Of a stretch of 64,000 bases of DNA, positions 23,409-36,571 are shown one piece after another; the stretch's first letter is position 1; the number at the start of each line of letters is the position of its first letter. Source of the DNA: Lytechinus pictus (Eukaryota); NCBI RefSeq assembly GCF_037042905.1, contig NC_087245.1, positions 24,182,001-24,246,000 on the forward strand. Reading direction: 5' to 3'. Both the position numbers and the translations under genes were made by a program. The notes beneath the pieces were generated by a model that worked only from the letters and a program-made list of their open reading frames with translations, had not been told where the DNA came from and did not search any database.

Positions 23409-26400
23409 GTACGAAAATTTCTATAACTCTGAGTAGAATCTTAAAACATCGCCCTTCCCGTGTAATTATCAGGATTCTAGATGAATGTTAATGCTAATCA
23501 AATACTAGCTACACATAATATATAAGATTTGATTCAAATTCTATGTTATTTAATCGAGAAATACTGTTGAAAATAGTGTGGAATTCCCTGTGATGTTCGG
23601 TTCATAACATATGCATCGATCAATTGAACGCGAACGAATGTTATTTAAATTCGACTGCCATGGAACTGCTTACCAATAAGATATATATATTTCTACTTTC
23701 ACTGACTGGGTCAGACAGTGGAAGCGGTAGTATGAATGATGGCAGTTAATTTAAGGTCCATCATGTCCATCGTGAACTAAGGCCCGATTATTACTTATTA
23801 GTAAAATAATTCCCCACTTTGACAATGTTTGAAGTTTGCGCAGAGCTTAGTTAGTCCGGTCTCGGTCGAGACTGATTTTCATTTATTTTTAGAATGTCTG
23901 CGGCGCGGCCGTGCGCATCTTTCACTGACACTCGCTGTCTGCATGCTAGACCAAAAGCTTCGGTCTCTGTTATGTTGGTTGTTCAGCTGAACTCCGTTGG
24001 CTTCACTCACCAAATACAGAGACCGAAGTTCTAGCGCGATCTGTACAGGGGACTCAATGGCCATATGTTTATGTACTTAAGATCGGATAAAACGGGGAAG
24101 TGAATTTGCGCGACAGCCGAGGTAAGTCACTGTTTTTGTTCCTTTTAACTTGATTTTTCTCCGTTTTTTGGCAATTAATGCCAAGAGGGAATATTAATTT
24201 GCATTTTGGTCGCGTTAATTTTCAAAATTTTTATTCATTAAACTTTAAAGACAAAAATTGAAGAGCCCCGACGGGGGGATTTTGCATTGCAAGTCCCCTA
24301 ATGGTGGCTGCACGCTAGCAAGCCGTCTGTGTACGAGGAGAAATTTAAAAAAAAAAAAAAAAGTTAAAAAACTCCTCGAAACAGACGGCTGCCAGCTGTC
24401 TATCTGCATGCTAGCACTTGACTTAGCAGTGCCAGTGCCCTCACATTGGGTGATTTCAACAGTATGGTTGGAGCTACCCCTTATCGACCACCTAATTTTC
24501 TAAGCATCATATCTGCGAAAATATTTATCAGTTTTACCTAGTTTTCGTCTCATTTGTGCAGAAAATTGAGCAGATCAGATTCCCATGTTTTGATCGGCGA
24601 CTTCGATTCAATTCGCGTACCGGTATGCACGGCCAATATGGGAGACTCCAACAGGGGAGACAATCTCTCATATTGGAAACTTGCTTTGATAAAAAGGACA
24701 AAAGAAACAACAACCAAGGGATCGATATTTTTTCCACCCAAAATTTTGTCTCGCTTGTGACTTAGCCAAACTTGTTAGGTCAGAAGTAGCCTGGATCTGG
24801 AGGCGTCTGGGGAGTAAAAGTCATCTACTCTACGTAGGCTTACTCCCCACTGACGCCTGGGACGCCCCCGGGGGGGGGGGCACTCGACCAAAAAAGTGGT
24901 AGGGCCAGGGGTGTGCCGCGGGCGAGACAAAAAAACGGGGGCCTTGGAGTGGGCTTATTGTAAAAAGGAGGGTCCTCGGAACGGGCTTCGGAACTACAAA
25001 TGTTTGTGAAAACGGGGGTCCTTGGAACGGGTCGCCTGCGTGTGCATCCCAATGGAACGAGCATACGTGCATGCAGCTAGCATGGCGCACGGGCGCTGGC
25101 TGTGCCAGCGCAGAGGCGATGGTCGGAAAGCGCTCTCCGGCCGCTTTTCACCAAAATTGCGGCTCATCGTAGCAGATCGATGCGACCGGAACGGCGTAAC
25201 GGAAAATATGCGAAGCTTTGGAGCGGATTTCTTTCTTCTTTTTTTTTCTGGATAAGAAGAAAATGCTATGCCTTGGAGCGGCTTTCTTTGTTCTTTTTCT
25301 CAATAAGACAAAAATGCTATGCCTTGGAACTGAAATTTGAGTGTAAAAATGGGGGTCCCCTCCGCGGCACATACCCACTATGCATTATATACTGAGTGAC
25401 CCCCCCTCCCCCCCCCCCCCCCCCCCCCCGGGGGGACGCCAAGGTATATTCACGCACATACGGCCACTAAATCTGAAACTCTGGCCCCCGAGATTTCTAC
25501 TTTCCCTCTAAAAGATCTAGCCCTAAAAGTACATGGGGTTCAACTTCATTTCCAACATTTCTGCGATATCGATTTCGTTTTTAAAGAAGAATTCAATAGA
25601 AAAACGAGAAAAGTGTTATGAAAAGATGGGAAGAGCTTACGGCCGTGTTTACGTCGCCATCTTGATTTCTTTGTCTTCCGCTTGGCGACAGCACGAAATC
25701 GCGTGAACTCCATGGAGCTGCGGATTGTGCCTAGATCATGTGCGCACAGGGCGGGCAAAATTCAAATTTTCGCCACGCCACATTCTACTTCCCTGTAAAA
25801 TTTCTAGACCTAAACAGTGTAAATAGGCTAGAACTTCATTTCCGACATTTATACATTATTGATTTCATGTAAGACAAATATTCATGATGTTGGCGCCCTC
25901 TCTATGCATCTCGTAGCTACTAACAGAGAAAAAGATGGCGACGTAAATTTGACAAGTTTTTTCCTGCCTTCTCATGATATATTTCTCGGCTTTTTAAATG
26001 AATATTTGTTTAAAAATGAAATCAATGTATAAATGTCGGAATCAATCATCATATTAAAAAGAAAAATTGTTTCATCTTTAGAGGCAGCATGTGTTCCTTA
26101 AAGTGATCATTTCACTTTGTTCTGATTTTAAAAAATATCCTTTTGGTTCCTGAAAATGGGCTAAACGTTAGGCTTATAGTGTAAAAATACCATCCCAAAA
26201 GTTTCAAAGTATTATATTTACAGGATCAATTTTAAAACCTTGGAGATGTAAACCAAAGTTTGAAATAATCGGGAGTTGGTTTCAATGACTATGTGTATAC
26301 AGGGAATCTGTGCACCACAACACATTAATTCTAGATGAACACAGCATGACCTACATACAGTGTGTACAAGGTATACACTGAATGTACAGTGCAGCTAATA

Positions 26401-29400
26401 GTGTGTGTATAGGAGATACACACAACAGAAGGCAGTCAAAATAGCCAACGGACTTTTTGAATTGGAGAAAACTGGTCATAAGCTGAACCCGTCTACTAGA
26501 CGGTTCTCAAAATCAGGCTAATAAATTGCTACTTGTATCTAAATTAGAGTTTTTCATCCTATATTGTGGTCTGTTTCAGGGTTTTTGAGGACAAATACAG
26601 GCACTCATACGCACGTTTCAACTCAGTTTGAGAATTTTTTAAATCAGCTGCTCACAAAGTTAAACAATACCTTTAACCCTAATTCTCCCGGGGAGGGGCC
26701 ATAATGGCCCCCCCCCCCTCGACAATTTTCGCGATATATCTGCTGCGCAAAATTTTTTCACCTTGCCGCTCACTGACTTTTTACTTTCAAGTCTCGCGCA
26801 AATTTTGAGACCAAATTTGTGACGCCCGGGTACGCGGTTGCGACATTACGCAACATTATGTAAGTGCATGTCAGACCCAAAATTGCTCATAAACGTGATT
26901 TCATGTACAAATCCAATGCAAATTGTGTATTAAGTCAAAATTCATAAATGTATCATTATTTCTACTTTTACTGATTAAACTTAATTAATTTGGCTTTGTT
27001 TATGATCAGAATTAAGTCTGGAACGATTGCCATCGAAAAAACAATAAAAAAACAAAGAAATACATAAGAAATTAAAAAAACAATAAAATACATAAGAAAT
27101 CGGTCTTGGTTCCAGAATTTTTTTCATTCACAATTGTTAGGAATGCTAGAATATTTTCACCAAAAAATAGCTTTCTAGGAGCTTTATTTAGTGAATCAGA
27201 GCAAAAAGTATGATTTCATGAATAAATTAGCATAATTAATTCATATAAAATAAAAATATATGAATTCAGTGAGATTTACCAATGCAACTGCGTTGATTAC
27301 GTCATTCTGTACCATCATGCAAATTTTCGTTGTGATCGCGCAATCCGCAGCTGAGATCTTAAGGGGGGGCCATAATGCCACCCCCCCCCCCCGGGAATGA
27401 CAAGAATAAAAATACCCCGGGAGATTTAGGGCTGAAATAATTAACTAAAATAGAGGAAAACAGTAACATTGACACCGGTGTCAATGTTACCTCTGAAGTA
27501 CAATTTCAGTTTTGTTAAGAGTTCAATGTACCAGCCTGTCACTTAGTCACAATTATTCATTACAATGATACGAGTATTGTTAATAGATTTCTTATTGAAA
27601 ATAGATTGTTGAAATTGTAATTTTTTTTCTCAAATTGAAAGGTATTAGTTTGAAATTTATGAATCAAAATAGGAATGTCAAGAATAATTTATCCAAGAAT
27701 GTAGGACAAGATTGAGTAAAGTTATGCTGTTATTGTGTTAATATTGCTGTAGTATGACTCGCTTTCATAGACAAGAATATTTATATTTAGACTAACGTTT
27801 TATTTAAGAAAAACTTTTTGGGTACTTTTTCGAGGCAATAAAACCAATAATACATTTTTTTCCATCTTTCCACAGGTATCTCACGTGATAGATGGCACAA
27901 AAGACGAAAGACTGGAGGAAGATGTCCTCCTATTCGCATGAAGCGAAAGTTTGAGCTGGGTCGTCCACCTGCACTCACAAAGGTAATGCTTTTTTATGTT
28001 TACTTGTCAATCATAAATGTTACAGTAGTAATTAACTTAATTTGCCAAAACTAGACATTGATGCTTAATGAAAACCTTGTATTACCTCAATGAATAATGT
28101 CAAATTGTAGATGAATGGTAAAAAATACAACAAATGTTGATTAATAATAATCATGTTAACTAAAAGAATTCCCACTTAATATTTTTAGTATTTTTTGTAG
28201 GCTTTTGTCCTTCAGTAATTCAATCACCAACGGGATATTAGGAAAGGGAGATGCAGGATGATGTTAATTTTCATTTGTTGACAGGCTGATTGTCGTTTTG
28301 ACTTTCATCAGCGTTGTGGATTTGACTTTGTCATAGTTACACTGACTGCAGTCTCCTGATTACTCATCCTATTTATTTCATTTGATTGATTTTTAATATT
28401 CTATTGGTTCTATCATTCTATTTGGTTTTATCTGTTGAACAAAATTATTTTCTTTATTTGTATGTTTTGATTGATTTTTAATTCTCTATGTCTATTGGTT
28501 TTATCATTTATTGTCTCGCCTGCATAGCAGAGTGAGACTATAGACGCCGCTTTTCCGACAGCGGCGGCGTCATCAACATTGAAATCTTAACCAAGGTTAA
28601 GTTTTGAAATGTCATCATAACCTAAAAAGTATAGGGATCTAGTTCATAAACTTGGACATAGGGGTAATCAAGTATTACTGAACATCCTGCCTGAGTTTCA
28701 GGTGACATGACCAAGGTCAAAGGTCATTTAGGGTCTATGAACTTAGACCATGTTGGGGAAATCAATATCGAAATCTTTACCACTGAGGTTAAGTTTTTGA
28801 AATGTTGTTATAACTTCGGAAGTATATGGACCTAGTTCATGAAAATTGGACATAAGGGTGATAGTGTATCACTGAAGTTCCTGCCTGAGTTTCAGGTCAC
28901 ATGACCAAGGTCAAAGGTCACTTCGGGTCAACGAACTTTGACCATCTTTGGGGTATTTGTGGAATTGTCCTAACTTAAGAATTTTATGGATCTGGTTCGT
29001 GAAACTTGGGCATAAGAGCAATTAAGTATACCTGAACATCCTGTGCAAGTTTTAGGTCTCATGACCAAGGTCAAAAGTCATTTAGGGTCAACAAACTTTG
29101 ATAATGTTGGGGGTATTTGTGTAATTGTCATTGATCATAACTTTAAAAGTTTATAGATCTAGTTCATGAAACTTGGAACATGAGAGATACCATACATGTA
29201 TATCCCTTAATATCTTGTGCATGTTTCGGGTCACATGATCAAAATCAAAGGTCATTCAGGGTCAATGAACTTTGGCCGTGTTGGGGGTATTTGTTGATTG
29301 GCATCATAACTTAGAGAGTTAATGGATCTACACATGTAGTTCATGAATTACATAAGGGTAATCAAGTTTGAATGATTGTTTTGCACATGTCATAGTCATA

Positions 29401-32400
29401 GATCACATGATCATGGTCAAAGGTCATTCAGGGTCAATGAACTTTGGCCGTGTTGGGGGTATTTGTTGATTGGCATCATAACTTAGAGAGTTAATGGATC
29501 TACTCATGTAGTTCATGAATTACATAAGGGTAATCAAGTATGAATGATTGTTTTGCACATGTCATAGATCACATGATCATGGTCAAAGGTCATGTTGGGT
29601 CAATGGACTTAGTATTTTATTATCATATGAGTGTTTTCTGTTGTGAATAATTATTTAATTGCTGTTTTCAAAGTCAGCACTGCTGCTTTATCGAATCCTG
29701 TGATGCATGCGAGACTGCCAGAGGTGTTCCACTTGTTCTTTTTGTCTCACCTGCATAGCAGAGTGAGACTATAGGCGCCGCTTTTCCGACGGCGACGGCG
29801 GCGGCGGCAGCGGCGTCAACACCAAATCTTAACCTGAGGTTAAGTTTTTGAAATGACAGCATAACTTAGAAAGTATATGGACCTAGTTCATGAAACTTGG
29901 CCATAAGGTTAATCAAGTATTACTGAACATCCTGCCTGAGTTTCATGTCACATGACCAAGGTCAAAGGTCATTTAGGGTCAACAAACTTTGATAATGTTG
30001 GGGGTATTTGTGTAATTGTCATTGATCATAACTTTAAAAGTTTATAGATCTAGTTCATGAAACTTGGAACATGAGAGATACCATACATGTATATCCCTTA
30101 ATATCTTGTGCATGTTTCGGGTCACATGATCAAAATCAAAGGTCATTCAGGGTCAATGAACTTTGGCCGTGTTGGGGGTATTTGTTGATTGGCATCATAA
30201 CTTAGAGAGTTAATGGATCTACACATGTAGTTCATGAATTACATAAGGGTAATCAAGTTTGAATGATTGTTTTGCACATGTCATAGTCATAGATCACATG
30301 ATCATGGTCAAAGGTCATTCAGGGTCAATGAACTTTGGCCGTGTTGGGGGTATTTGTTGATTGGCATCATAACTTAGAGAGTTAATGGATCTACTCATGT
30401 AGTTCATGAATTACATAAGGGTAATCAAGTATGAATGATTGTTTTGCACATGTCATAGATCACATGATCATGGTCAAAGGTCATGTTGGGTCAATGGACT
30501 TAGTATTTTATTATCATATGAGTGTTTTCTGTTGTGAATAATTATTTAATTGCTGTTTTCAAAGTCAGCACTGCTGCTTTATCGAATCCTGTGATGCATG
30601 CGAGACTGCCAGAGGTGTTCCACTTGTTCTTTTTGTCTCACCTGCATAGCAGAGTGAGACTATAGGCGCCGCTTTTCCGACGGCGACGGCGGCGGCGGCA
30701 GCGGCGTCAACACCAAATCTTAACCTGAGGTTAAGTTTTTGAAATGACAGCATAACTTAGAAAGTATATGGACCTAGTTCATGAAACTTGGCCATAAGGT
30801 TAATCAAGTATTACTGAACATCCTGCCTGAGTTTCATGTCACATGACCAAGGTCAAAGGTCATTTAGGGTCAATGAACTTAGACCATGTTGGGGGAATCA
30901 ACATCAAAATCTTAACCTAAGGTTAAGTTTTTGAAATGTCATCATAACTTAGAAAATATATGGACCTAGTTCATGAAACTTATACATAAGGTTAATCAAG
31001 TATCACTGAACATCCTGCATGAGTTTCACGTCACATGACCAAGGTCAAAGGTCATTTAGGGTCAATGAACTTTGGCCGAATTGGGGGTATCTGTTGAAGT
31101 ACCATCATAACTTTGAAAGTTTATGGATCTGATTCATGAAACTTGGACATAATAGTAATCAAGTATTACTGAACATCCTGTGCAAGTTTCAGGTCACATG
31201 ATCAAGGTCAAAGGTCATTTAGGGTCAATGAACTTCGGCCAAATTGGGGTATTTGTTGAATTACAGCCATAAATTTGAAAGTGTGTTGGTCTAGTTCATA
31301 AAACTTGGACATAATAGTAATCAAGTATCACTGAACATCCTGTGCGAGTTTCAGGTCACATGATCAAGGTCAAAGGTCATGTAAGGTCAAAGAACTTTGG
31401 CCACGTTGGGGGTATTTGTTGAATTGCCATCATATCTCTATAAGTGTATTGGTCTAGTTCATAAAACGTGGAAATAAGAGTAACCAAGTATCACTGAACA
31501 TCTTGTGCGAGTTATAGTAGTTTTCAAAATCAGCACTGCTGCTATATTGAATCGCGTGATGCAGGTGAGACGGCCAGAGGCATTCCACTTGTTGTATATT
31601 GCTATTATTTTTTTTTTTTTTGGGGGGGGGCTCTTCTCTATTATATTATTTATTTTATCAACATTACTCCTCTGTCATGCAGTTATTAGAGTTCCTCAAT
31701 TTTGTCATAAGGATATGTGTTTGTTATTAATTTATTTTGTTTTGCACAAAAGTATTGCTATATGCTATTGTTGGAATTGAAATCTGTTGACTGATTGCTT
31801 ATAATTGATAATAATGGTAGTCCACTTTGAGTAATATGCCTTCATTACGAATGAGATATTTAAATTCATGCACACAAGTTAAGGGAAAGTGTGATTCTTT
31901 TTTTTTTTCATTGTAGATTGGAGTCAAGAGGATACATCTTGTACGATGCATGGGAGGAAACATCAAACGCCGTGCTCTGCGTCTGGACACAGGAAACTTC
32001 TCCTGGGGATCAGAACGTAAGTAGAGTCTTCTAAGTACCCTCTGAAGCCTGTTGAAAGAGTTGCAACAAAACCTGACAAAAAAATAAAACATTACTACAA
32101 ATTGCCTTCCACTGATTGGATAAAGTCAAGCTGCGTTTGAATTTTTTGAGTTATGATTTGTTGCAACTCGTTCTTTAATGGGCACCCAATGTGCTTGAAG
32201 ATGATCTTATGCAATTACTGCCCATACTGTGTGATGGGACGGTTCTCAACCATTTTGCATTTGTTAGATTGCTCTTTGGATTCCTAAAGAGACTGTTCAC
32301 TGGTGTTATGTCTTCATGTTTTTCAAGCAAAAGAGTGATTTTCAATTTTGATATAATGCAGAATTAGAATGTGGTGGTTCTCATCATTGATATTTTTATA

Positions 32401-35400
32401 CAAGTCTTTGGTTTTTCCTCTCATTACATTTGTTATTACAGTGATTCATAATTAAATTTGATAAGAGCCATAGTTTGTTACGAATTGCAGAATGATGCCT
32501 TAAGATTAGTCTTTCTGAAGGGGTAGACCCTTGGTGAAGACCATTGTCATAGTTACACTGACTGCATTCTATGTATAATTCACTACATGTATGCAATATG
32601 CATTTACAACACAAAGTAAAACTATGTATTTATTGTCCCTTTTGGTTTTTCTCCCCCTTCCAGACACTACCCGCAAGACCCGCATCATTGATGTTGTGTA
32701 CAATGCAAGCAACAATGAGTTGGTGCGTACCAAGACTCTGGTCAAGAATGCCATTGTTCAGATTGACTCCACGCCATTCCGTCAGTGGTATGAGGCACAC
32801 TATGCTCTACCTCTTGCCAGGAAGAAGGGAGCTAAGCTGGTGAGTTTCTTCCTGCCCCAAGAAATGGAGCAACTCAATAGATCAGCAAAAAGTGAAAGGT
32901 CTTGGCCAAAAATGACACTAATTTAGGATAATTTGGTTGAAGCTGTAGCAGAATGATGTTGAAGATTAGTCTTTCTGACAGGCTGTTTGTCGTCTTGACA
33001 TTGAATCAGCCTTATGGAGACAAGTCATAGTTACACTGACTGCTATATGCTTTGTGATATTGTTTTGCAGCATGTAAAAATGTAGATTTGGGTTGTACTG
33101 TTTTTGAAAAAAAAAATATTCTAAAAGCTTTTTGACAAAATATGAGTTCAAAACAGAGTAGTGAAATAATTCTGTATTGTATCTGTTTGCCTTTACTCCA
33201 ATAAACTTTAGTCATTTTTGTCTCGCCTGCATAGCAGAGCGAGACTATAGGCGCCGCTTTTCCGACGGCGGCGGCGGCGTCAACATCAAATCTTAACCTT
33301 AGGTTAAGTTTTTGAAATGACATCATAACTTAGAAAGTATATGGACCTAGTTCATGAAACTTGGACATAAGGTTAATCAAGTATTACTGAACATCCTGCT
33401 TGAGTTTCAGGTCACATGACTAAGGTCAAAGGTCATTTAGGGTCAATGAACTTGGACCATGTTGGGAGAATTATTTTCAAAATCTTAACCGAAGGTTAAG
33501 TTTTTGAAATGACATCATAACTTAGAAAGTATATGAACCTAGTTCATGAAACTTGGGCATAAGGTTAATCAAGTATTAGTGAACATCCTGCTCGAGTTTC
33601 AGGTCACATGACTAAGGTCAAAGGTCATTTAGGGTCAATGAACTTTGGTCAAGTTGGGGGTATTTGTTGAATTACTATCATAACTTTGAAAATTTATGGA
33701 TCTAGTTCATGAAACTTGGACATAAGGTTAATCAAGTATTAGTGAACATCCTTCCTGAGTTTCAGGTCACATGGCCAAGGTCAAAGGTCATTTAGGGTCA
33801 ATGAACTTTGGCCAAGTTGGGGGTATTTGTTGAATTACCTTCATAACTTTGAAAATTTATGGATCTAGTTCATGTAACTTGGACAGTAGGTTAATCAAGT
33901 ACCACTGAATATCCTGTGCGAGTTTCAGGTCACATGACCATGGTCAGTGGTCATTTAAGGTCAATGAACTTTGGCCGTGTTGGGGGTCTTTGTTGAATTA
34001 CCATCCTAACTCTGAAGTTTATGGATCTATTTCATAGAACTTGGGATATAAGAGTAATCAAGTATCACTAAACATCCCCTGTGAGTTTCAGGTCACAAAA
34101 CCAAGGTCAGTGGTCATTTAAGGTCAATAAACTTAGGCCATGTTGGGGTAATTGTTGAATTGCCATCATAACTTTGAAAGTTTATGGATAGAGTGAATGA
34201 AATGTGGACATGGGTGTATTTGACAAGTCTTAAGTCACCGTTCAAATGTCATCTATGGTCAATGAACGTGGTATTATGTCATTATATGAATGGTGTGTTT
34301 GTGAATGATTATTTTATAGTAGTTTTCAAAGTTAGCACTGCTGCTATATTAAATTGCGTAATGCAGGCGAGACTGCCAGAGGCGTTCCACTTGTTAATTT
34401 TTGTTCTGCCTCTGCCATCCGTAGATATTTGCTTGAGGTATGTCTGGGTCATTTGTCTTGTTTTCATTCTTGCAATAAAATTTGACTAAAACTTTGTGGT
34501 TCCTCATTTTTATTTTGTATTCGTACAAAATTCATATAATTTCATTTTTTTGCTCCAATTATAGATTGACCACTGGTTTTGTGTGTAACTTTGCAATTCC
34601 TGCAAGTAATTTTCTTTTCAAAGATTTCATATGGAAAAAAATACCAAATTATGATTCTGATTCTGTCATGTTTTGTATTGAAATTTTATAATTTTGACCC
34701 TGATTACCTTTTCAAATTTGAAATTTCTCTTTTTATCATCAACAGACTGAAGATGAACAGAAGGCTTTGACTGTGTCTGGTTCCAAGAAGGTTCAAAAGA
34801 AGTTTGAGGAACGCAAGAAGACCGCCAAGGTTGCCTCGGCCCTTGAAGAGCAGTTCGGTACTGGCCGTCTCCTGGGTAAGTTCTTGTGCTGAATATTCAT
34901 TCCAATCGCGGTATATATTGGGGTGAAAAGTGACCTGCCCCTAAGATAACACACCCTTCACAGCATATTCAAAATATCAGTTTCCCCCCTCAAATTTCAA
35001 CTCTGTTGCAAGATATGCGTGATGTGGTATTCTGAATACCATTGCAACTGTTTTAACCTCTTAACATGTGTCTACCTGTTGACTCAATCATTTTTTTTCC
35101 TACAGTGTAATTCATTTAAGTCCAATAGAGAGCAATGAGTTATCTACCGCGATACATGAAGATTGCAGGGGCAAAAGTAATTCCTCAATTGATGCATTGA
35201 TATGATTATTGTGCACAAGTGATACAATTTAATTAACTTTTGCAGGATTCCTCACACTGGAAGGTGCTCTTTCTTGAAAAAGAAGGGGGGGGGGGGAATG
35301 GGTGAACATAAAAAAGCGAAGCTGAAGTTAAAAATTGGGCCTGAATTCAAAGTTTTCTTAAGGATACCAATTTGCAAACTAGATGTAGAATGGACTTCAA

Positions 35401-35868
35401 ATTATCGCTTGAAAGTGATAATATATGTACTCCCTGGACAACAATACTAGTGGCTCTGCAATCTAATGATTGGTTTTACTAGGATCATGCTGGATATACT
35501 GCCACACTAACTATTCTGGGGGAACTTTTCTGTTGGTTTACAAAGTACATCTGCTGAGCTATTGAAGAATGAAATTGAAAATCAACAGGCTAATTGAATG
35601 TCACAATTTTCATGGTCTGCATTAGTAAATGTAATGTTCTTAACTCCATAATTTGTTTAGGCCACATTACTTTTGTCCTGTTTGATTTTGTTTTTTCTTT
35701 GAGTCAATTCACATATGATTTTTAATCTCTTGTCTCGTTCTTTTTATGTTAAACACAGCATGCATTGCTTCAAGACCTGGCCAATGCGGCCGTGCCGATG
35801 GCTACATCCTAGAAGGCAAGGAGCTCGACTTCTACATGAGGAAGATGCGTGCCAAGAAGGGCAAATAG
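23405..35868 (+). CDS. RPS8: 40S ribosomal protein S8 (eS8), join(23405..23408,27876..27982,31917..32016,32664..32839,34746..34875,35759..35868), 208 aa
   Basis: The spliced translation [16 protein letters not shown]...[80 protein letters not shown]...[36 protein letters not shown] is clearly eS8. All introns are GT..AG, phases are consistent, and the exons sum to 627 nt. Confidence 0.97.
24867..25432. mobile_element. CCCGGG-ended MITE, TSD GGGACGCC (RPS8 intron 1)
   Basis: CCCGGGGGGGGGGGCACTC / GAGTGACCCC..CCCGGG; exact 8-bp TSD. Confidence 0.7.
26676..27431. mobile_element. piggyBac-type MITE
   Basis: TTAA|CCCTAATTCTCCCGGGG ... CCCCGGGAGATTTAGGG. Confidence 0.6.
27876..27982 (+). CDS. RPS8: RPS8 exon 2
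   Basis: ttccacag|GTATCTCA...ACAAAG|gtaatg; encodes [35 protein letters not shown]. Confidence 0.97.
28252..28350 (+). ncRNA. SNORD46: Box C/D snoRNA, SNORD46/U46 (snR63) homologue, copy 1, RPS8 intron 2
   Basis: Terminal stem TGCAG/CTGCA, C box ATGATGT (28258), D box CTGA (28342-28345). The guide GTCATAGTTAC is antisense to the conserved 28S segment GUAACUAUGAC. The 3' end GACTTTGTCATAGTTACACTGACT matches my recollection of human SNORD46, which is also hosted in RPS8. Confidence 0.88.
28511..31593 (+). mobile_element. Head-to-tail Helentron-like elements with an internal 891-bp duplication (RPS8 intron 2)
   Basis: Same subterminal IRs and 3' CCACTTGTT ends at 29737, 30628 and 31593. Confidence 0.75.
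31917..32016 (+). CDS. RPS8: RPS8 exon 3
   Basis: ttgtag|ATTGGA...GAAC|gtaagt; encodes [33 protein letters not shown]. Confidence 0.97.
32486..32566 (+). ncRNA. SNORD46: Box C/D snoRNA, SNORD46 homologue, copy 2 (dual guide), RPS8 intron 3
   Basis: Stem (GAAT)TGCAG/CTGCA(TTC), C box ATGATGC, D' CTGA at 32515 preceded by GATTAGTCTTT, C'-like GTGAAGA, guide GTCATAGTTAC-A and D box CTGA at 32558. It lies ~100 nt upstream of the acceptor. Confidence 0.9.
32664..32839 (+). CDS. RPS8: RPS8 exon 4
   Basis: ttccag|ACACT...AAGCTG|gtgagt; encodes [58 protein letters not shown]. Confidence 0.97.
32946..33045 (+). ncRNA. SNORD46: Box C/D snoRNA, SNORD46 homologue, copy 3 (dual guide), RPS8 intron 4
   Basis: Stem TAGCAG/CTGCTA, C box ATGATGT, D' CTGA at 32975 preceded by GATTAGTCTTT, internal hairpin AGGCTG..CAGCCT, C'-like ATGGAGA, guide AGTCATAGTTAC-A and D box CTGA at 33036. 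Confidence 0.9.
33215..34395 (+). mobile_element. Complete Helentron-like element (RPS8 intron 4)
   Basis: TTTTTGTCTCGCCTGCAT...ATGCAGGCGAGACTGCCAGAGGCGTTCCACTTGTT with internal tandem units. Confidence 0.8.
34746..34875 (+). CDS. RPS8: RPS8 exon 5
   Basis: aacag|ACTGAA...CTGG|gtaagt; encodes [43 protein letters not shown]. Confidence 0.96.
35759..35868 (+). CDS. RPS8: RPS8 exon 6 (coding part to stop)
   Basis: acacag|CATGC...AAATAG; encodes [36 protein letters not shown]. Confidence 0.97.
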
Positions 35869-35936
35869 GTCCAAAGCCTTTCTTCTCGTGGGAGTACTGT
35901 ACAATATCCAGAAGCAGCAACAACAAACAAAAAATC

Positions 35937-35942
35937 AATAAA
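35937..35942 (+). terminator. RPS8 polyadenylation signal
   Basis: AATAAA ~70 nt after the stop codon, followed by T/GT-rich sequence. Confidence 0.7.
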
Positions 35943-36571
35943 AATGTCATAAAAATTGAAAATGCCCGATTCTTGTTTCATTTCTCTTTAATACAGTATG
36001 TGATTGCTTTGATGATTTGGAGTATTTTTGTGAAAGTGTTTGTATTTCCTATACCAATTGCTTGAGTATGAAGATCTGAATTGAATATGAAGTGCGTGCA
36101 CATGTGGAAATACACACAAGGGGGGGGGCAGCCTTTTTGCCTTACCCTGGCCCTTGAAAGTATGTGTGAGACATTCTGTATAAAAGAGTATCACAATGAA
36201 TGGTCTCTGCCAGCCTTATGTTGCAGCATTGCATTGTTAAAACAAAATGTAGCATATAGCTTTCAAGTTTTTTGTTACATTGTGTTCATACAAAAGCATG
36301 GATTGATGTGCCGTCCATCTGTGCTTGGTGGCAAGCAATGCTTCTTCTATAGGCGTACTCCGGGATAAAAATTATTACATGCAAATAAGCAGAGTGAAAT
36401 TTGAGAAGCAAAATGCTGAAATTTAATCTAAACCTGTTATGTTTTTAATTAAAACTGACAATATTTTGTGAAGACGGTTATATGCATGAAGTCTTGAATA
36501 TATGCAATAGATAAGCTGATGTCATGTCCACTCTATCCTTTTTCTTACGATATTGCATGAAATCTTGTTAA

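Follow-up and report, generated by a model that had tools for sequence, protein, structure and literature searches.

The RPS8 gene of the sea urchin Lytechinus pictus harbours three box C/D snoRNA copies of the SNORD46 type, two of which carry, besides the SNORD46 guide, a second rRNA-complementary segment directly before an internal CTGA box. The question raised by this locus is whether the second segment is a guide, and whether the nucleotide it would select is a modification site peculiar to this lineage. We examined the locus in a window of 64,000 nucleotides, which is the whole stretch of DNA analysed (NC_087245.1, 24,182,001 to 24,246,000, forward strand). Positions given below are those of the window, 28S positions are those of the urchin's own rRNA unless another species is named, and the features are collected in Table 1.

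The host gene was identified as RPS8 (eS8): translations of its exons matched PDB eS8 entries with E-values of ~1e-30, and the peptide of exon 5 was 100% identical over 42 amino acids to a cluster named eS8, Lytechinus pictus. RNA reads joined position 32016 to 32664, splicing out a GT..AG intron (32017-32663), which holds copy 2. In the raw-read RNA runs coverage was confined to exons, with 29 reads for X21 (sampled at ~6%) and 6749 for X24, and their 150-nt read pairs and depth are uninformative on snoRNA expression. Copy 2 lies about 97 nt from the 3' splice site, which is close to the spacing of roughly 70 nt described as favourable in the available part of PMC1821038, and copy 3 lies 1.7 kb from the 3' splice site of its intron, which starts at 32840.

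Table 1. Features of the RPS8 locus and its three SNORD46-type snoRNA copies (window positions).
Feature	Position	Strand	Basis or remark
Host gene RPS8/eS8	27876..35868	+	Translations, PDB eS8 matches, read joints and loose ends
RPS8 coding exons	27876-27982, 31917-32016, 32664-32839, 34746-34875, 35759-35868	+	First exon, with the start codon, outside the list
SNORD46-type C/D snoRNA copy 1	28251..28351	+	RF00218 26.5 bits; D guide and internal hairpin kept, without D' guide
SNORD46-type C/D snoRNA copy 2, short form	32485..32567	+	RF00218 18.2 bits; terminal stem
Copy 2 box C (ATGATGC, off consensus at its final base)	32492..32498	+	Sequence
D' guide of copy 2, complement of own 28S 1158-1168, predicts Am1162	32504..32514	+	rRNA pairing
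Box D' CTGA of copy 2	32515..32518	+	Sequence
Short hairpin of copy 2	32519-32531	+	Fold
Box C' GTGAAGA of copy 2, one mismatch from consensus	32534-32540	+	Assignment inferred from C/D consensus
Copy 2 box D with its D guide GTCATAGTTAC, target own 28S A2605	32546..32561	+	rRNA pairing
SNORD46-type C/D snoRNA copy 3, hairpin-containing long form	32946..33045	+	RF00218 30.4 bits, E 0.0024; fold
Copy 3 D' guide (32964-32974) with its CTGA box D' (32975-32978)	32964..32978	+	rRNA pairing
Internal hairpin of copy 3	32980-33012	+	Fold
Degenerate box C' ATGGAGA of copy 3, two mismatches	33014-33020	+	Assignment inferred
Copy 3 box D with its D guide, target 28S A2605	33024..33039	+	rRNA pairing

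All three copies carry the D guide for 28S A2605 (human A3739/3760, yeast A2256), and a search of the 812-Mb genome for box C combined with the SNORD46 D guide returned three matches, exactly the three RPS8 copies. The same D guide and target are found in SNORD46/U46 (U40), yeast snR63 and Drosophila snoRNA:CD14 (Me28S-A2564), grouped as RF00218. The host gene is shared as well, as the fly orthologue lies in RpS8, and an internal hairpin is present in copies 1 and 3. The terminal features comprise a C box RTGATG(C/T) that ends in C or T where the consensus has A, a CTGA D box and a closing stem of 5-7 bp. Note that the C box of the fly orthologue, GUGAUGU, is also off consensus at its last base. 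Scanning with Rfam at gathering thresholds gave zero matches in the 64-kb window, the copies surfacing at the E-value level only, and their RF00218 scores all lie under the gathering cut-off of 40 bits, so that we class them as functional and syntenic SNORD46 orthologues and not as formal members. When RPS8-hosted metagenome loci were scanned with RF00218, 1/6 reached the cut-off among the matches listed, indicating that this model misses many such RNAs.

The segment that sets copies 2 and 3 apart, GATTAGTCTTT, has just two occurrences in the window (32504-32514 and 32964-32974). In both cases AA stands before it, and a perfect CTGA follows directly (at 32515 and 32975), the latter as a preliminary description of this DNA had stated. 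Over the 13-nt guide segment, the two copies are identical in 13/13 columns. The description had also called the sequence downstream of D' completely different; this holds up to the D guide, where 8/45 columns are identical, but not beyond it, where D guide and D box are common to both copies. The internal hairpin can be aligned between copies 1 and 3, with 34/49 identical columns in the hairpin region against 5/13 in the guide segment, and copy 2 has a short unrelated stem in its place. A guide kept in copies 2 and 3 amid diverged interiors is the pattern that selection on the guide would be expected to leave. In a run labelled as another organism, one 301-nt contig differed by 14 substitutions, 3 inside copy 3 and 11 in the flanks, which also had 4 indels. 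The boxes and guides of copy 3 are unchanged in this contig, which has a chance probability of roughly 0.4 at about 6% flank divergence and is consistent with conservation but not significant.

For the target search, an rDNA unit was fetched from the same genome, with the bounds of 18S, 5.8S and 28S set with Rfam. The 11-nt segment is an exact complement of 28S 1158-1168, in agreement with the match to the conserved large-subunit rRNA reported earlier. The target stretch has 51 exact matches genome-wide, and 45 nt around it are identical in 10/10 rDNA copies inspected. Together with the C of D', the guide forms 12 Watson-Crick pairs (28S 1157-1168) with a duplex energy of -17.4 kcal/mol, compared with -4.3 for the same region of copy 1, and this 12-bp duplex is the longest perfect rRNA match of copy 2 and the joint longest of copy 3. 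The D'+5 position falls on A1162, opposite a guide U. Other G-U-containing targets in 18S, 28S and the spacers, the search being confined to the rRNA unit, were weaker or out of register and were rejected.

As a bare 11-mer the segment is not distinctive, since matches with up to one mismatch are common by chance (2.28 expected per window) and genome-wide matches number 599 against 894 for the control. When each copy was shuffled 20,000 times, 11 nt perfectly complementary to rRNA stood immediately in front of the box in 0.19% and 0.12% of the shuffles. Across the window, 6/241 CTGA motifs on the plus strand are preceded by such a complement, five of the six being snoRNA guides, and 0/243 on the minus strand. 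One could suppose that a recent duplication or a gene conversion gave copies 2 and 3 their common segment and that its complementarity to rRNA is accidental. They are indeed neighbours, 460 nt apart, and a complement anywhere between box C and the D guide appears in 3-4% of shuffles (3.1% and 3.7% of 20,000). However, their upstream flanks are unrelated (alignment score of 19 over 60 nt), the spacer between box C and guide differs between them, and conversion would explain the sharing but neither the register, nor the perfect D' box, nor the coincidence with a site known from fly, planarian and fungi. We regard this explanation as very improbable.

The folds bear on another explanation, in which the segment common to both copies persists because it forms one side of an internal stem, GTCTTT pairing with GAAGAC or GGAGAC near C', and the rRNA match is incidental. 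In the minimum-free-energy folds of the free RNAs, part of the guide does pair with the C' region in both copies. Nevertheless, the folding z-scores are weak (-1.64 and -1.37), the stem accounts for about 6/11 nt only, and a perfect rRNA complement (P about 0.002) on a known 2'-O-methylation site would be left unexplained, all of which makes a purely structural role hardly likely. The reading of the segment as a D' guide with predicted target A1162, and thus of copies 2 and 3 as dual-guide RNAs, is well supported by these sequence comparisons.

Box C/D snoRNAs as a class are released from introns, assemble with four core proteins and select their targets by the +5 rule. By analogy with this class, copies 2 and 3 would be released from the spliced RPS8 introns and joined by fibrillarin, NOP56/58 and 15.5K. 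Their D guide would then direct methylation of the site universal to SNORD46, A2605, while 2'-O-methylation of A1162 (yeast A917, human A1634, fly A1117) would fall to the D' guide. In all, we consider it probable that copies 2 and 3 are intron-encoded dual-guide C/D snoRNAs that would methylate A2605 from D and A1162 from D'.

The identity of A1162 was fixed through its neighbours. The urchin's own SNORD80/snR60 genes are an RF00309 pair (G000:C15, 62.5 and 58.9 bits), and both copies have guides for A1062 (D') and G1153 (D) only, the equivalents of yeast A817 and G908. These genes form a separate pair to which copies 2 and 3 do not belong. They were located by the family search, as the real SNORD80 guide contains a G-U pair and a search assuming a perfect guide gave 8 matches against 4 for the control. 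A1162 lies at +100 from A1062 and at +9 from G1153, which places it at yeast A917 and human A1634 and agrees with the earlier statement that the selected A lies a few nucleotides 3' of the Gm guided by SNORD80.

SNORD80/snR60/Z15 (RF00309) acts on this neighbouring Gm, and its D-guide duplex for Gm1153 overlaps the D' duplex of copies 2 and 3 on 28S, so that the two snoRNPs would have to act sequentially. The overlap also suits a reading in which the D' element pairs with pre-rRNA and brings about no methylation, or fractional methylation, serving as an anchoring or chaperone arm or as a competitor of SNORD80. Consistent with such a role are the degenerate C' of copy 3, whose two mismatches include the GA pair, the non-consensus C boxes and the fact that copy 1 manages without the guide. 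Against it, copy 2 has the canonical D'-stem-C' layout with a perfect D' and a single mismatch in C', an anchor would need no D'+5 register, and the register falls exactly on a position where fly and planarian have a methylated nucleotide. We therefore judge pairing of this kind to be unlikely, and methylation of A1162 by the D' guide remains the preferred reading.

The description knew of no methylation of this A in human or yeast, and published tables bear this out: human A1634 and S. cerevisiae A917 are unmethylated in Table S4 of PMC11014333. The same source, in its accessible part, aligns Drosophila Am1117 (formerly Am1092) to human 1634, yeast 917, Arabidopsis 926 and Dictyostelium 1131, and among the six species tabulated there the fly alone is methylated. 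Am1117 is a high-confidence site, with a MethScore of about 0.96 in 4/4 controls and of 0.75-0.84 after fibrillarin knock-down, and is assigned to Me28S-G1083a-d in the Nop60B introns (PMC11014333, accessible part). It was also seen as Am1092 by low-dNTP primer extension, with the guide at box D, in the available text of PMC1821038. We found the fly guide in the identical register before its box in the RF00528 consensus. The further claim of PMC1821038 that vertebrates share Am1092 and that 'yeast snR84' guides it was rejected, as the later RiboMeth tables record no Nm at this position, either in human or in S. cerevisiae.

In the planarian, Am1049 is described as fully methylated and fibrillarin-sensitive, and its RTL-PCR validation failed, according to the part of that report at hand. 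Among fungi, a 13-nt D' guide of Neurospora CD39 is predicted for 26S-Am897, nine bases past Gm888, and S. pombe snR83 is listed as the CD39 homologue (PMC2780460, accessible part); S. pombe 25S Am949, guided by snR83, was mapped by primer extension and is given as absent from humans, from plants and from budding yeast (PMC4138321, likewise). Note that the planarian, Neurospora and S. pombe positions were equated through +9 offsets and the authors' homologue column and not by a new alignment. On the negative side, Arabidopsis A926 is scored as unmethylated (PMC8053127, Table S4), Dictyostelium has no such site in Table 1 of PMC8817022, and in the parts of the published tables consulted the site is unmethylated in human, mouse, Xenopus, zebrafish, S. 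cerevisiae, Arabidopsis and Dictyostelium. Our literature search found neither echinoderm rRNA methylation data nor a C. elegans methylation map, and the available portions of PMC8393311, PMC3412847, PMC6461891, PMC7668251, PMC4605285 and PMC13487219 yielded no information on the 28S site.

It was proposed in the preliminary description that the modification is undescribed and lineage-specific. Its absence from the seven organisms just named is what such a proposal would predict, but the same nucleotide has been measured as methylated in Drosophila and planarian, mapped in S. pombe and given a predicted guide in Neurospora. Since the modification is catalogued in other lineages, the claim of lineage specificity fails unless the +9 offsets from the conserved Gm are wrongly numbered in every one of these tables, and a previously unknown mark at this position is scarcely credible. 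Three papers each called the site peculiar to their species, the fly site being marked 'Dm' only, the planarian one 'unique' and the S. pombe one absent elsewhere, in the parts of them at hand. These 'species-specific' reports, from fungi, fly and flatworm, concern one nucleotide, for which a predicted guide now appears in a deuterostome. Known absence is thereby narrowed to vertebrates and a few other lineages, through loss there or repeated gain elsewhere. With 5 positive and 7 negative taxa, the mark may be either ancient with losses or a repeated independent gain.

What would be new in the urchin is the combination of guide and scaffold; the mark itself is known, and neither a new mechanism nor a new RNA class is involved. 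DmSnR60 (snoRNA:Me28S-G1083a-d, CD28a-d, RF00528) addresses the same adenosine, its antisense element being equivalent to the urchin guide and placed in the +5 register as well (PMC1821038 and PMC11014333, accessible parts). It differs in having the A guide at box D, a Gm1083 guide at D' and a location in Nop60B/dyskerin introns, whereas the urchin copies have the A guide at D', no Gm guide and a location in RPS8. RF00528 gave no match over the cut-off in the urchin genome; the urchin copies thus appear to share the target of DmSnR60 but not its family membership. Neurospora CD39 and S. pombe snR83 have a D' guide for an A at +9 from the snR60 Gm (888 to 897), just as 1153 leads to 1162 in the urchin (PMC2780460, PMC4138321, accessible parts). 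However, the D guide of CD39 targets 26S-Am375 and that of the urchin RNA is the SNORD46 one, a comparison made by description and not by sequence, and the Neurospora snR63 homologue, CD33, is a separate, single-target RNA (PMC2780460, in the part available).

Among the SNORD46-type sequences compared, the D' guide was found in urchin copies 2 and 3 only. The fly orthologue has one listed target, to which copies 2 and 3 add the D' guide, and the guide is absent from the vertebrate-based SNORD46 consensus in the RF00218 alignments, as the preliminary description had expected. No dual-guide SNORD46 was found described in the literature searched, subscription papers being mostly outside the search; to that extent, the suggestion of an undescribed dual-guide snoRNA stands. 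We also scanned public metagenome contigs for box C combined with the SNORD46 D guide and obtained at least 124 loci, with 110 distinct sequences among the matches listed. Among these listed matches, the urchin D' guide occurred in 0/110 distinct SNORD46/snR63-like sequences, and an internal NTGA preceded by any 11 nt complementary to rRNA in 1/110, directed at another site. RPS8 was detected by tblastn at 23/124 of the loci (among the matches listed, which include no known echinoderm). The 20 distinct snoRNAs of these RPS8 loci are off the guide by at least 2/10 bases, and in several a D'-like box occupies the corresponding position but follows unrelated sequence (6 aligned), again among the matches listed.

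Other carriers were also sought in the urchin genome. Pattern searches gave as further matches 4 with exact guide plus CTGA, 17 of D' type (against 5 for the control) and 8 of D type. None of the further guide-plus-box matches had a convincing scaffold, and an Rfam C/D match at the site was seen in 0 of 10 loci scanned. Locus L186 is a weak candidate for an alternative carrier, and no better predicted guide for A1162 was found elsewhere in this genome. SNORD46, with the A1162 guide in its D' slot, is apparently a new carrier for this guide, and the urchin guide would be the first predicted for this site in a deuterostome among those found.

These comparisons suggest that the A1162 mark may be old and patchily kept, its guiding job sitting, in the urchin, in the D' slot that SNORD46 normally leaves empty, and elsewhere being carried by the D box of a fly snR60-like RNA or by fungal CD39/snR83. 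Urchin SNORD46 thus looks like a case in which a guide has passed from one snoRNA scaffold to another. Translocation of guides between snoRNA families, sometimes with a shift between D and D', has been described for the fungal clans CD_5 and CD_19, as is proposed here for the urchin; those switches concern other sites, in fungi, and involve neither SNORD46 nor the A1162 site (PMC5824354, accessible part). It is possible, if slightly on the doubtful side, that a single ancient modification of the opisthokonts, Am at yeast A917/human A1634, reached deuterostomes and was lost in vertebrates and budding yeast, its guide having passed among at least 3 unrelated scaffolds. Urchin SNORD46 would then be a hand-over in progress, with one paralogue lacking the guide, one having the full scaffold and one a rebuilt interior. 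The locus would also provide a clean animal example of a target held constant by selection while the carrier snoRNA and the box change. The three paralogues, with and without the guide in a single gene, form a natural experiment that can be tested in a tractable embryo.

The genome assembly of the sea urchin itself contains a tandem pair of SNORD80/snR60 snoRNA genes (L160 and L161), both scoring above the Rfam cut-off. These are canonical members of the family, and their guides match A1062 and G1153 of the species' own 28S rRNA. A further locus, L186, has a perfect box C, a box D, a closing stem of 4 bp and a 9-nt complement to the same 28S stretch that is targeted by the D' guides of RPS8 intronic copies 2 and 3, and an Rfam scan of the locus gave no support. 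Judged from these sequence features, L186 might be a D-type guide of its own for A1162, though the candidate is weak. In the same assembly, the rDNA repeat-unit length varies by contig, with spacings of ~13.8, 14.3, 15.2, 16.3 and 17.1 kb (C112, C115, C135, C170 and others), and the chromosome-scale contig C18 carries one rDNA match.

Features located in the genome and in public metagenomes
Feature	Location	Strand	Basis
SNORD80/snR60, L160	G000:C15:10499881-10499969	-	score > Rfam cut-off
SNORD80/snR60, L161	G000:C15:10500729-10500822	-	score > Rfam cut-off
L186, weak D-type guide candidate	G000:C11:34080581-34080652	-	boxes, complementarity, stem
SNORD46-type internal hairpin	window 28284-28313 (copy 1)		alignment
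SNORD46-type internal hairpin	window 32980-33012 (copy 3)		alignment
Tandem snR63/SNORD46-like loci, metagenome	L047, L053, L079, L092, L110; L048, L062, L069, L081, L098, L107		among matches listed

On eukaryotic metagenome contigs, snR63/SNORD46-like snoRNAs occur as tandem pairs or triplets among the matches listed. A CGTYYTG-like loop in the internal hairpin is frequent in such RNAs, being found with a simple pattern in 15 of the 110 metagenome sequences among the matches listed and seen by alignment in, for example, loci L065, L035, L106 and L133; the hairpin with this loop is absent from copy 2. The loop may represent a conserved element that binds protein or provides auxiliary pairing.

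In vertebrates, SNORD38 and SNORD55 are neighbours in RPS8. No guides of either type were found in window 24000-36000, and SNORD38 is present in metagenome locus L065. The RPS8 coding exon at 27876 starts mid-codon, and no first exon bearing the start codon was located in window 24000-27876. The RPS8 intron sequence downstream of copies 1 and 3 is filled by several units of an interspersed repeat with internal tandem subunits (window ~28520-31590 and 33218-34395), so that copy 1 lies 3.6 kb and copy 3 lies 1.7 kb from the 3' splice site. Within the first of these regions, 29040-29730 appears to be repeated in tandem, almost exactly, at 29930-30630.
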